Below, in pieces: positions 37,317 to 41,563 of a DNA stretch of 44,365 nucleotides (positions are counted from its first letter, which is position 1; the number at the start of each line of letters is the position of its first letter). The position numbers were made by a program, and so were the translations under genes. A model generated the notes under the pieces. It did not search any database, was not told where the DNA came from, and saw nothing but the letters and a program-made list of their open reading frames with translations. The stretch lies in NCBI GenBank assembly GCA_018650165.1, contig JABIGM010000021.1, forward strand, positions 1 to 44,365, read 5' to 3'. The stretch is from Methanobacteriota archaeon. GTDB lineage: Archaea; Thermoplasmatota; Poseidoniia; Poseidoniales; Poseidoniaceae.

Positions 37317-38342
37317 ATGGATTTGGTTCAAGCGGCGTGGATGATTCGCGATCTCGGCCAACCAGTTAGCGCTTTACACATCGGCGAGGACGCGTCCATA
37401 ATCGCCGGGGGATGGGACGGGGCCCTCAAAAAATGGGACCACGAAGGTACTCTATTGTGGGGGACACAATGCGAAGACCGAATTGAATGTATTTTGGTTG
37501 ATGGTGAATTAGTCGTAGTCACGTCAGGCCTGCATATCACTTGCGTAATCGATGGAGAAATTCAATGGAGCCATGCATTGGAAGGTTCAGCAGACTTACT
37601 TACCACTTTCAATGACCAAATTATAGCTACCTCAAGCGTGTACGATATCGAGCATGGCGATTTTATGGAAAGCGGGATTTGGAACTTCACACGTGAAGGA
37701 GAATTACTGAATGTTAATCGCATGGACGAAAGACCATGGTTCATTGCTTCTGAAGCGGACTTAATCGTAGGGCTTGGTCGTCCGAAGTGCGGCGTACTGA
37801 TTGGAAACGAATATCACAATTTGGCAACCGAGTCTCCGGTAACATGCGGAGTTTCGGGTAGAGAAAGAACACTATTTGGTCATGCAGACGGAACCGTATC
37901 GTCATTAGATGGCGCAAAGGTTTCCAAAGAAGAAACTTCGATAGATTCTGTATTGTGTTCTGAAAGCGGATTTGTCATTGCATTAGAAAATGGGACATTA
38001 GTTGCCCGTTCACCCGACTCAACTGAATTATGGAAAGCACCAGGCTCTCAAATTACAACCCAAGTATCTGGTTTCAATGAATTACATTGGTGCGGCCGGT
38101 GGCAAATTACCACGGGCGTTGTTGAGGTTAGAGGCTCAGATGGCAAATTAATCACTTCAGCTTCAACTTCACGGCCAAGAGTTTCGACTTCATCTGAATT
38201 AAGAATCGGTATCGGTTTTGACGATGGCCAAATCCTGGTATGGGAAAAGGAATTGTTTGAACGCCGTTCATCTGAAAAATCATCATCTACGGATGGTCGA
38301 AAATCTGCCTTGGCTGCTAAACTTCGATCACTACGAGAATGA
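37317..38342 (+). CDS. PQQ/WD40-like beta-propeller protein
   Basis: AGGWDGALKKWDHEGTLLW, GEIQWS, ELWK and IGFDDGQILVWE blade repeats. Confidence 0.75.
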   Translation: MDLVQAAWMIRDLGQPVSALHIGEDASIIAGGWDGALKKWDHEGTLLWGTQCEDRIECILVDGELVVVTSGLHITCVIDGEIQWSHALEGSADLLTTFNDQIIATSSVYDIEHGDFMESGIWNFTREGELLNVNRMDERPWFIASEADLIVGLGRPKCGVLIGNEYHNLATESPVTCGVSGRERTLFGHADGTVSSLDGAKVSKEETSIDSVLCSESGFVIALENGTLVARSPDSTELWKAPGSQITTQVSGFNELHWCGRWQITTGVVEVRGSDGKLITSASTSRPRVSTSSELRIGIGFDDGQILVWEKELFERRSSEKSSSTDGRKSALAAKLRSLRE

Positions 38343-38436
38343 TGTTATTTATTGAACAAATCTTCCAGTGGATACAGTGGAAAGCATAGCCGTAGACCCC
38401 CGTTTCGCATGGAAAACAGCCGAAAAAAGCGTAAGG

Positions 38437-38443
38437 TTTATTT
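38437..38443 (+). promoter_or_regulatory. Possible TATA box for the structured RNA
   Basis: TTTATTT lies about 25 nt upstream of the first hairpin (38468), with an A-tract at 38423-38428. The match is imperfect. Confidence 0.35.
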
Positions 38444-38467
38444 GCCGCCTCTGCACACATGAATATT

Positions 38468-39335
38468 GCCGCTCTGAAAGGAGTGGTGGAGGACTTCTCC
38501 GGAAGCCCTCTGGGACCCTTGCCAACCGGACGCTCAAACCGAGCAAAGTGTTGGTCACAAACTCTGGAGACGGAGCGAGTGAGGCGATCGGGGAGATTGT
38601 GAACTTTCGAGTTCAGAAAGTCCCTCCGCCCACAGGATGATACGGAGCTTCGGCGAAGAATCAGCCACATATCTTTCGAGGAATGTGGTATAGGGAGGGC
38701 CACAACTTGTTGTGGAATTACCAAAGACTGTGCAACAGCCGGGAGGAGTAGCAGTAACAGTTCTTCGGAACAACCTCTGTTACAACAAACGGCTTGGTGG
38801 AAAAGTTTCGGCTTGGAAACCACGGGCGGAGACCGAATCAGGGATGCAACCTTCGGGATGCAAAACTGGAAACGGACCAACCACGGACGGAAACCGCGCA
38901 ACCCACTTCTTCGGAAGTGAGTTGAAACGGACCTCCATGGCCAAGACCGAATTGGAGAGCAACCTTCGGGAAACTCGAAAAAAACGGATGGCCACCGTTG
39001 GAGGAAGCACGATCACTTCGGTGAGAATGTGAAAAACAACACCGGTAGAGAGGAAACAGGACCTTCGGGCGATGTGAAATCAATACCACCCTGGGAATCT
39101 ACCATTTCGGTGGAAGATGAACAGTACCCGGCTGTTGAGAAGAAGGCACCTTGGAAACAAGATGTCAACGAACTGGAAAGCACTTTTCGGAGTGAAGAAA
39201 GGTGACGACGACTCGACGGCCACCAGCGGAGGCTGGCAGGGGGGCGGATATCCCACCCGGATGAAACCCCCCTGCCAGTTCTCCCATCCTGCTTTCACAG
39301 GTAAACGGGTGCCAGTGCATTCCGCTTATGACTCT
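38468..39335 (+). ncRNA. Candidate large (~870 nt) highly structured non-coding RNA, family unassigned
   Basis: TTCG-capped hairpins with loops at 38606, 38649, 38675, 38764, 38807, 38852, 38910, 38965, 39017, 39064, 39106 and 39186. Also a UCCG loop at 38498, GAAA loops at 38476 and 39154, a CUUG loop at about 38706, and a 12-bp stem 39233-39244/39267-39278. No credible ORF. Ends are approximate. Confidence 0.8.
38732..38988 (+). repeat. Four degenerate tandem modules GCAAC-[UUCG hairpin]-AAACGG within the RNA candidate
   Basis: GCAAC at 38732, 38846, 38898, 38959; AAACGG at 38787, 38870, 38925, 38982. Exact repeats: AGACCGAAT (38830, 38944), GCAACCTTCGGGA (38846, 38959), GAAACGGACC (38869, 38924). 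Confidence 0.75.
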
Positions 39336-39376
39336 TAAGGACGTAAATCTTCTTCGCGACCACTTTTGATTGGTGA

Positions 39377-40768
39377 TTAATTTACGCCAGTCATTTCTTC
39401 AGGCCTAACCCACTGGTCGAACTCTTCATTGGTAAGGAACCCTAATTCAAGAGCGGCTTCCCTCAGAGTCGTGCCTTCCTGGTGTGCCTTTTTAGCGATC
39501 TTTGCAGATTTATCATATCCGATATGATTATTCAAAGCTGTAACTAACATTAGTGAATTCTCTAGATGATTTTTGATAACATCCCTATTTGGCTCAATAC
39601 CTTCCACGCACTTTTCTCTAAACGCGCGCATTGAGTCTGATAGAATCCGTGCACTATGCAATAGATTGTGAATCATCATTGGTTTGAATACATTCAATTC
39701 GAAATTACCTTGGCTTCCTCCGATTGTGATGGCCGTGTGATTGCCCATCACTTGACAGCAAACCATTGTTAGGGCCTCGGATTGAGTTGGGTTTACCTTT
39801 CCTGGCATAATAGAGGATCCTGGCTCATTAGCGGGAAGTGATAATTCTCCAAGTCCACATCTTGGCCCAGAACCTAGCCAACGTACATCGTTGGCTATTT
39901 TCATCAAACTTACAGCCAAGGTGTTGAGTGCGCCACTCGCAGATACAACAGCATCATGAGCGGCTAATTGTGAAAATTTATTTGGCGCTGAAACAAACGG
40001 CAGACTCGTTTTCAATGCGATGGCAGCAGCCACTCTATCTGCAAACTCGGCATGAGTATTGAGTCCGGTACCCACTGCAGTACCTCCTAATGCCAACTCG
40101 TGTAAATCTTCTAACACAAATTCAATTCTTCGAATATCAGCATCTAATTGTGCAACCCAGCCACTTGCTTCTTGCCCGAGTGTTAAAGGTACAGCATCCA
40201 TTAAGTGAGTACGTCCAATTTTTACAACATCAGACCATTCATCCGATTTTATCGCTAGTGCATCTCTCAAATTTGCAAGGCTGGGCAGTAACTCATGAGT
40301 GAAAGCTTCAGCACTGGCAATATGCATCGCAGTTGGAAAGGTATCGTTGGAGGACTGTGCGCGATTAACGTGGTCATTTGGATGAACAGGACTCTTGGAT
40401 CCAAGTACCCCACCCGCCATTTCTATTGCACGGTTTGCAATAACTTCGTTTGAATTCATATTCGATTGTGTTCCAGAACCGGTTTGCCAAATGCGTAAAG
40501 GAAAATGGTCATCCAATTTCCCATTAACAACCTCTTCAGCAGCAGCAATAATTAATTTTGAAACATCAGAGTCTAGTTGTCCCAAATCAGCATTGACTTT
40601 TGCCGCCGCTTGCTTGAGTATTCCAAACGCCCGAACGATTTCTCGCGGCATTTTGTCATCACCAATATCGAAGTTGATTAGGGACCTCGCGGTCTGGCAT
40701 CCGTAGTAACGATCTGCAGGAACTTCCAACTCTCCCATGGTATCGGACTCGATTCGAACATCTCTCAT
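39377..40768 (-). CDS. fumC: Fumarate hydratase class II
   Basis: [35 protein letters not shown], signature [28 protein letters not shown]. Confidence 0.97.
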
Positions 40769-40825
40769 ACCCGTAGGGGCGTAGGTGGTTGTCCATGTCC
40801 CTTTCCCCTCGCAACCGTCAAAGGG

Positions 40826-41563
40826 GTGAATCCAGAGCACTACCTGATGGCAAGTTATCGCCTAGTATGGTTTCAACATCTGCATAAGGCAGCAGGAACC
40901 TATGTGATTAGACGTGCAATGGCCAACGGCGAGACATTTTGGCCGACTCATGAAAACGGAAACCCAGTGAGAGAGGGAGAAGTAATTCCCCTTTGGAAGA
41001 TGGAAGGAAACGATTTGACAGCATTTATTGACGAATGTGAAAATAGTGGAGTCACATTTGTTGCTTGTGAATGGGGCGGGGCCGACTTTGAAATCCTGGC
41101 AAACGACGAAAGAGTAACACTACTAACTTGTTTGAGACACCCGATTAAGCGATTAATTTCTAACTACAATTATGACCATTATTGGATGTGGACAAAGGCA
41201 ACATCCTATGCCGAATATCTGAATGAAGGCCATCTACATTCTTCATCAGAATATTATACTCGAATTTTTGCACGTGGAAAAGAAGATTTAGCAATCGCCA
41301 AATCAAATATTTCCCTCTTCGATTACATCATTATTGCAGAAGATGGTATGTCTGCATTAGACGAATTAGGATGGTCCAAAGAAAGCGATACTACGCACCC
41401 AACATTTGGCGACAAAAAAAGAGCATCAATCCTCCTTTTGAAGTTAAGGTGGATTAGATTATTCAACTATCTCAAACAACGAAAACACCTCCCGCCTACA
41501 GAATTACAAATCGAAGAAAAAAATAAATTAGACATGGATTTATACAATTCAATGCGTGATTAA
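40826..41563 (+). CDS. Sulfotransferase family (Sulfotransfer_2-like) protein
   Basis: 5'-PSB-like [10 protein letters not shown], 3'-PB-like [13 protein letters not shown]-terminal NKLDMDLY. Start may be 40847. Confidence 0.75.

Follow-up and report, generated by a model that had tools for sequence, protein, structure and literature searches.

The large bacterial RNAs OLE, ROOL, and GOLLD are known to assemble without protein through A-minor contacts and kissing loops (PMC12286853). A different use of repeated structure is made by the bacterial RNAs CsrB and RsmZ, in which a row of one small hairpin motif binds a dimeric protein at each copy. Marine Group II archaea are uncultured and are among the most abundant microbes in the ocean. 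To our knowledge, very few large functional RNAs have been described in Archaea besides rRNA, RNase P RNA, and SRP RNA.

Here we describe a row of small hairpins around a nearly invariant, A-rich core within a large noncoding RNA of Marine Group II archaea. The DNA analyzed was a stretch of 44,365 nt (contig JABIGM010000021.1 of assembly GCA_018650165.1), hereafter called the window, and coordinates are positions within it.

The host RNA and its family

A 1-kb spacer (positions 38343-39376) houses the gene for the host RNA. Its upstream neighbor is a beta-propeller gene (37317-38342, plus strand), and its downstream neighbor is fumC, encoding a class II fumarase (39377-40840, minus strand). 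The RNA itself (38466-39297, plus strand; ~830 to 870 nt) extends from a 5' hairpin (GCCGCUC... at 38468) through a 3' terminal hairpin. The spacer has an elevated G+C content, with A strongly exceeding T on the plus strand, and contains TTCG 13 times, 7 of these as CTTCGG, for which dinucleotide shuffles give an expectation of 0.26. No long conserved ORF is apparent in the region, which is overlapped by ORFs of 106 aa (plus strand) and 194 aa (minus strand), and many helices across the RNA covary among homologs. The host is a large noncoding RNA of Marine Group II archaea that is new and belongs to no described family, and our literature searches for noncoding RNAs of this kind in the group returned nothing relevant. 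Three features favor the plus strand for the RNA: the cUUCGg caps, the G-U pairs, and an upstream TATA-like box.

That box (TTTATTT, 38437-43) is part of a putative archaeal BRE and TATA element (38429-38443, plus strand) lying ~25 to 30 nt 5' of the 5' hairpin. The block (...GTAAAGTTTATTTGCC) is kept across homologs, a comparable TTTAT box is present in other genera, and its consensus alone suggests a putative role as the promoter. Farther 5', the pattern TTCC-N3-4-GGAA(A) occurs in two palindrome-like elements (38363-38417), namely, TTCCAGTGGA at 38363 and GTTTCGCATGGAAAAC at 38402, and comparable words (TTCCAGTGGAAA and TTTCCG..GGAAAA) occur upstream of the RNA in other genera; these palindromes may serve as operators for a regulator acting on the RNA gene. 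In the same area, a SNORD26-like C/D-box match over the propeller stop codon (38331-38396; 21 bits, E 0.14, far under gathering) is probably due to chance.

BLASTN recovered the host RNA in 22 of 24 other genomes of the same genus at 66 to 85% identity, with the middle of the RNA (~38940-39120) frequently unalignable or missing, and indels among homologs were not multiples of three (e.g., 34 to 35 nt). The comparison set used for the same genus comprised 27 distinct sequences. When a 16-mer from U2, the second of the hairpin units described below, was used to scan metagenomes, only 3 of the 120 loci returned proved to be true homologs, the others having matched by chance. One other genus shares the propeller-RNA-fumC gene order. 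With the conserved 5' hairpin and the 3' hairpin as end points, the RNA measures from ~350 to ~860 nt (~350 nt at locus L063, ~450 nt at L079, 566 nt at L035, 680 to 790 nt at L083 to L090, and 820 to 860 nt at L080 to L082). This is an RNA family with 5' and 3' domains common to the genera and a lineage-specific middle, spanning a more than twofold range of length. At the place equivalent to that of the hairpin units, one genus carries a 9-nt purine-rich tandem array (CAGAAGGAA-like; L082, 1385-1485), and in another genus the words GGAAG and GAAGU are abundant in the middle of the RNA.

The best-conserved part of the family is its signature, the long 3' terminal hairpin (39225-39285, plus strand), which five genera from two families were found to share. 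The stem covaries cleanly from genus to genus, reading GGCAGGGGGG, GUGGGCGGG, or GUGAGUGGG with the respective complements, and the flanks AGCGGAGGCUGG and CCAGUUCUCCC are fixed. Three long-range helices with compensatory changes within the genus (38583-86/38627-30, 38631-35/38728-32, and 39134-39/39212-17) define sub-domains of the host RNA. An 18-nt direct repeat of 78% identity, with copies at 38987-39004 (GAUGGCCACCGUUGGAGG) and 39215-39232 (GACGGCCACCAGCGGAGG), joins the end of the third hairpin unit, U3, to the sequence directly 5' of the 3' hairpin, and the 228 nt between the two copies may represent a segmental duplication or an insertion.

Anatomy of the three hairpin units

An initial sequence-only reading of this DNA had described four modules, each consisting of GCAAC, a UUCG-capped hairpin of variable length, and AAACGG. 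All eight coordinates that it gave for the two words are exact, and their recurrence is well beyond chance: GCAAC-N5-60-AAACGG occurs four times in 38380-39320, compared with a mean of 0.05 in 5,000 dinucleotide shuffles, none of which reached four. Only three of the four modules are copies of one another, however. The array is formed by three abutting hairpin units of ~55 to 60 nt each (38823-38994, plus strand), separated by linkers of 0 to 4 nt. Each unit has the order Pa, (R)AAA, CCG, 2 to 3 nt, a Pc hairpin, (G)AAA, CGG, A, and Pa', and the Pc hairpin is variable and mostly UUCG capped.

The first unit, U1 (38823-38882, plus strand; module 2 of the sequence-only reading), is made up of Pa (38825-29/38877-81), AGA, the Pb helix (CCG at 38833-35, CGG at 38873-75), a UUCG-capped Pc, and AAA at 38870-72. 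Its Pa pairing is weak in the source genome, and the helix covaries in homologs (GGUGA/UCACC, GGCG/CGCC, GAUG/CAUC, GUCG/CGAC, and UGAG/CUCA). In U2 (38884-38937, plus strand; module 3), Pa is formed by GGA(C)GG (38885-90) and CCUCC (38932-36), followed inward by Pb (38894-96/38928-30), Pc (38899-902/38921-24), and a tip helix (38905-09/38914-18). The Pc stem and the tip each covary, and Pa, which is invariant in U2, is a predicted pairing. An alternative pairing of the CCUCC flank with GGAGG-type words elsewhere received no support from divergent homologs. Finally, U3 (38938-38994, plus strand; module 4) has Pa (GGCCA at 38939-43, UGGCC at 38989-93), which covaries as GUCG/CGAC and GCCG/CGGC, together with Pb (38947-49/38985-87) and a UUCG-capped Pc.

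The number of units is not constant. A comparison of copy number across Marine Group II homologs, which the sequence-only reading had proposed, showed that it differs between species: U3 is missing in at least 6 of the 27 same-genus homologs (about a quarter of species), and in a divergent subclade the units are rearranged, including an extra copy of a U2-like 5' flank.

At the base of each hairpin, 5' G-AAA-CCG lies opposite 5' G-AAA-CGG-A, placing a 3-bp CCG:CGG helix between 3x1 and 2x3 A-rich internal loops in a roughly twofold symmetric layout. Across ~47 distinct units from the three paralogs, this core is the most conserved part, and Pa and Pc vary freely while staying paired. Positions A10, C11, G13, A49, A51, C52, G54, and A55 are invariant, and conservation is 90% or higher at G7, A8, A9, C12, and G53. 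Of the 46 distinct units that could be scored, 45 have CCG:CGG as Pb; a compensatory CUG:CAG was seen once. The earlier claim that constant short unpaired motifs accompany varying stems is therefore borne out by the homologs, in which the stems both vary and covary.

The identity of the constant motifs had to be revised in one respect. AAACGG(A) is indeed conserved, the hexamer being retained in 11, 20, 17 (plus 8 with AGACGG), and 9 of the 27 homologs at the four sites in order, but GCAAC, proposed as the other conserved linker, is kept in only 1, 5, 1, and 1 of 27. The conserved 5' partner is instead AAACCG, which is present in 21 of 27 homologs at U1, in 21 of 27 at U2, and in exact form in 7 of 27 at U3, where one-base variants (AGACCG, CAACCG, and GAACCG) account for 10 more. 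As for GCAAC itself, the G of its first site is the last base of the long-range helix 38631-35/38728-32, and the CAAC of its third site is one strand of a covarying stem (CCAC/GUGG, CCAU/AUGG, and CCGU/ACGG).

A larger hairpin of a different type (38738-38793, plus strand) had been counted as module 1; it is conserved in its own right, with helices paired in 25 to 27 of 27 homologs and with compensatory changes. It consists of a GCCG/CGGC closing helix, a 6x6 loop, a covarying 7-bp helix (38748-54/38777-83), a 5x5 loop, and a UUCG tip. Considered as a unit copy (38732-38792), it scores 7 bits with the covariance model of the unit, matching at the UUCG tip only, and its similarity to U1 to U3 is at z ~1. 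A further outer helix (38720-24/38794-98) was poorly supported. Between module 1 and U1, the alignment and pair counts delineate a small UUCG-capped hairpin with an A-rich internal loop (38797-38823, plus strand), which is absent in 11 of 27 homologs.

Structural support and specificity of the unit

In an alignment of 37 hand-picked units drawn from 20 species-level loci, 80% of cells were paired, compared with 23 to 43% in controls in which the 3' partners were slid by 1 to 3 columns. Compensatory changes were seen at 13 of 17 pairs, and the covariation score was reached by no shuffle, although paralogs and close relatives are not independent and such shuffle statistics therefore overstate significance. 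A larger alignment of 50 model-aligned units, which is biased toward the covariance model used to build it, gave 82% paired cells versus 19 to 40% after sliding, with compensatory changes at 15 of 17 pairs. RNAalifold applied to the MAFFT alignment alone returned the same four nested helices, and the minimum free energy fold of the single sequence 38718-38996 recovered module 1, U2, and U3.

To assess specificity, we searched the window with the covariance model of the unit, R1, with filters off. Because U1, U2, and U3 belong to the R1 seed, their own scores (59.0 bits, E 5e-15; 65.6 bits, E 6.5e-17; and 42.3 bits, E 4e-10, respectively) are high by construction, and it is the silence elsewhere that is informative: exactly these three sites were found, and the next best scored 12 bits. 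The whole genome likewise yielded U1 to U3 and no other site, and in 91 genomes of the family, matches were limited to the host-RNA locus of the same genus. Of 35 homologous loci searched, 22 of the 25 same-genus loci had at least one match above 40 bits, with unit counts from cmsearch being too low because abutting units share one base. The 10 loci from outside the genus (four other genera and one unplaced MAG) had zero matches. The array thus represents an expansion, specific to this genus, of the host RNA's variable middle. Since the units are absent from the shorter RNAs of other genera (~350 to 680 nt), they are not part of the core function of the family.

Tests against known RNA classes

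Rfam 15 had no match at gathering anywhere in the window, and relaxing the search to E values up to 10 gave chance-level matches of at most 21 bits; scans for tRNA and tmRNA found none. RNase P RNA (RF00373) matched the host RNA only as a 10.8-bit fragment, and the canonical 223.7-bit copy lies on another contig; canonical RNase P RNA was present in 37 of 41 relatives. The genome's own SRP RNA (RF01857; 106 bits) is on contig 1 and not at the host RNA.

The unit was also compared with small structural motifs. A kink-turn, the site of L7Ae, is not formed, as the AAA runs precede the invariant CC/CG of a Watson-Crick helix and the GA/GA pair is absent. A bulge-helix-bulge (BHB) would have a central helix of 4 bp, and the unit has one of 3 bp flanked by 3x1 and 2x3 loops. 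The C/D box words RUGAUGA and CUGA are absent in 38823-38994, and no snoRNA model matched inside the units. A CRISPR array, which would have near-identical direct repeats of 24 to 48 nt and unrelated spacers, was rejected because Tandem Repeats Finder (TRF) returned nothing, no direct repeat exceeds 18 nt (89% identity), and the hairpins between the motifs are conserved and covary between species. In a Csr/Rsm sponge RNA, the conserved bases would be a GGA in the loop; here, the loops are UUCG and conservation lies at the stem base. The unit matches none of the classes tested (kink-turn, BHB, C/D box, Csr type, and Rfam families).

Origin of the array

In global alignments evaluated against 2,000 shuffles, U1 resembled U2 (z 6.5) and U3 (z 7.8), and neither the U2-U3 pair (z 0.9) nor module 1 against any unit (z ~1) reached significance. 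Direct repeats recur at unit spacing, the longest being the 18-nt repeat of 89% identity at a spacing of 61. The repeats that modules 2 and 4 were said to share could be confirmed as a 13-nt exact repeat at a spacing of 113 and a 14-nt repeat of 86% identity at a spacing of 114. TRF detected no tandem repeat in the window, in keeping with the earlier view that this is not a simple DNA duplication, and the DNA-level copies are either old or constrained only in parts. Similarity between units reaches into the flanks and the hairpin tips, positions that are free to vary among orthologs, which favors tandem duplication or later copying between units over convergence on the core alone. It is therefore likely, judging from these sequence similarities, the flank repeats, and a copy number that varies by species, that U1 to U3 arose by tandem duplication, as the proposal of modular duplication had anticipated. 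Because other genera bear different repeats at the equivalent place, local duplication seems to be a general way in which the middle of this RNA lengthens. The array would then illustrate how such RNAs grow when a hairpin located at a variable site is duplicated in tandem.

Possible roles of the repeated core

The stems drift while the core is fixed, and UUCG caps are poor contact surfaces; the core is thus what appears to be read, which favors docking sites. We speculate that the invariant core folds into a defined shape that would serve as a repeated docking site, that its partner would be a protein, maybe a dimer given the symmetry of the core, and that the array would act as a multivalent platform in which the UUCG-capped hairpins are inert struts. 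We give about an even chance to the presence of repeated docking sites at the hairpin bases, with a protein, perhaps dimeric, as the most likely partner. The suggestion of a multivalent scaffold offering candidate protein, ligand, or self-assembly sites plausibly fits the invariant core. More tentatively, the AAA / CCG:CGG / AAA core may constitute a new recognition motif and the array a multivalent hub, either loaded with (dimeric) protein or self-assembling from RNA only; if true, this would be a first for the Archaea. For any of these roles, a 55-nt module with an invariant core provides a small, testable handle on an RNA of ~840 nt, as it could be transcribed alone, probed, crystallized, or used as bait for a partner.

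Neither the co-occurrence of the neighboring propeller gene nor a search for the unit's words in other RNAs gave a partner signal. The upstream propeller, a 341-aa WD40/PQQ-like protein with a charged and probably helical C-terminal tail, is near universal and single copy in the order (125 of 131 genomes), whereas the RNA is patchy, so that the pair yields no co-occurrence signal; in another genus, an unrelated gene follows the propeller gene. The unit's words were absent from the genome's SRP RNA and from the RNase P RNAs of relatives. In two near-closed relatives that do not carry the host RNA, the linear motif was as frequent as a reversed-pattern control. The 23S rRNA gene is not assembled in this genome (80% complete, 66 contigs), and mimicry of an rRNA site was therefore checked through the genomes of relatives only.

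Invariance of the core could equally stem from RNA-RNA contacts. The A runs and the CCG:CGG helix would then make A-minor-type contacts without protein, either zipping the hairpins together within one molecule or joining RNAs into an oligomer. Such contacts are usually built from unpaired A triplets beside tandem C-G pairs, the linkers of 0 to 4 nt would favor side-by-side packing, the U-poor RNA leaves the A runs without a Watson-Crick partner, and OLE, ROOL, and GOLLD provide precedent (PMC12286853). On the other hand, almost all tips are UUCG, a cap seldom engaged in tertiary contacts, no GNRA-receptor pairs were seen, and the rest of the host RNA showed no partner element that covaries with the units. 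Homologs that have no modules exist, so an assembly role would be genus specific. We regard protein-free packing as a serious but minority possibility. A neutral expansion segment, in which a stable duplicated hairpin is merely tolerated and the core reflects only the needs of folding, appears unlikely. The array is confined to one genus, U3 comes and goes and is dispensable in some species, and other genera have unlike repeats at the equivalent place (a (CAGAAGGAA)n-like array or GGAAG-rich words), all of which would suit neutrality; yet the stability of a hairpin needs neither unpaired A's nor a 3-bp helix, and these are its most conserved parts.

The remaining explanations are far weaker. 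Aptamers include single hairpins whose internal loops are conserved, as well as examples arranged in tandem, so that the units might form a riboswitch-like array of small-molecule sensors; but nothing in Rfam matched up to E 10, the units lie in the middle of a noncoding RNA with no expression platform or gene downstream on the plus strand, and archaeal riboswitches are rare, making this very improbable. Slightly more remote still is the idea that the units are BHB-like sites at which the archaeal splicing endonuclease would excise the Pc hairpins: the pseudosymmetric core, in which 3-nt A runs flank a short helix, one on each strand, bears a loose resemblance to its substrates, but the invariant helix has 3 bp and not 4, and the A runs face one or two unpaired bases and so form internal loops. 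That the motifs are chance words, a plain DNA repeat, or part of a protein-coding region can be practically dismissed. GCAAC is itself a nonconserved chance word, and the 106-aa and 194-aa ORFs do overlap the region, but strong covariation refutes this explanation, and the four occurrences where 0.05 was expected, the indels that are not in threes, and the absence of a TRF repeat also weigh against it. Repeated docking sites at the hairpin bases remain our preferred reading.

Comparison with known systems

The known RNA elements that the array recalls differ from it in instructive ways. Like the expansion segments of rRNA, RNase P RNA, and telomerase RNA, it is a lineage-specific helical insertion at a variable site, with length polymorphism among close species; expansion segments, however, are seldom composed of repeats that share an invariant unpaired core. 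Helix 8 of SRP RNA, the site of SRP54, combines an asymmetric and a near-symmetric internal loop, each A-rich, with a 3-bp helix between them and a capped hairpin nearby, much like the unit, but its loop sequences are different, it is single copy, and the SRP RNA of this genome does not contain the unit's words. The BHB shares with the unit a pseudo-twofold arrangement and 3-nt unpaired runs on opposite strands, and its enzyme is dimeric; it nevertheless needs a 4-bp helix and true bulges, in place of the 3 bp and the 3x1 and 2x3 internal loops found here.

At the level of the whole RNA, the host resembles OLE, ROOL, and GOLLD in being a long, hairpin-dense, highly conserved noncoding RNA, and its packing could likewise depend on A-rich unpaired strands (PMC12286853). 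In contrast to these bacterial RNAs, it is archaeal, has no Rfam match, and carries UUCG caps in place of contact-making loops. CsrB and RsmZ are likewise bacterial, have no sequence relation to the unit, and carry their conserved GGA in the hairpin loop, whereas here the loops are UUCG, conservation lies at the hairpin base, and no CsrA-like partner is known. Their row of one small hairpin motif, each copy binding a dimeric protein, nonetheless offers an analogy for the multivalent platform that the three units may form.
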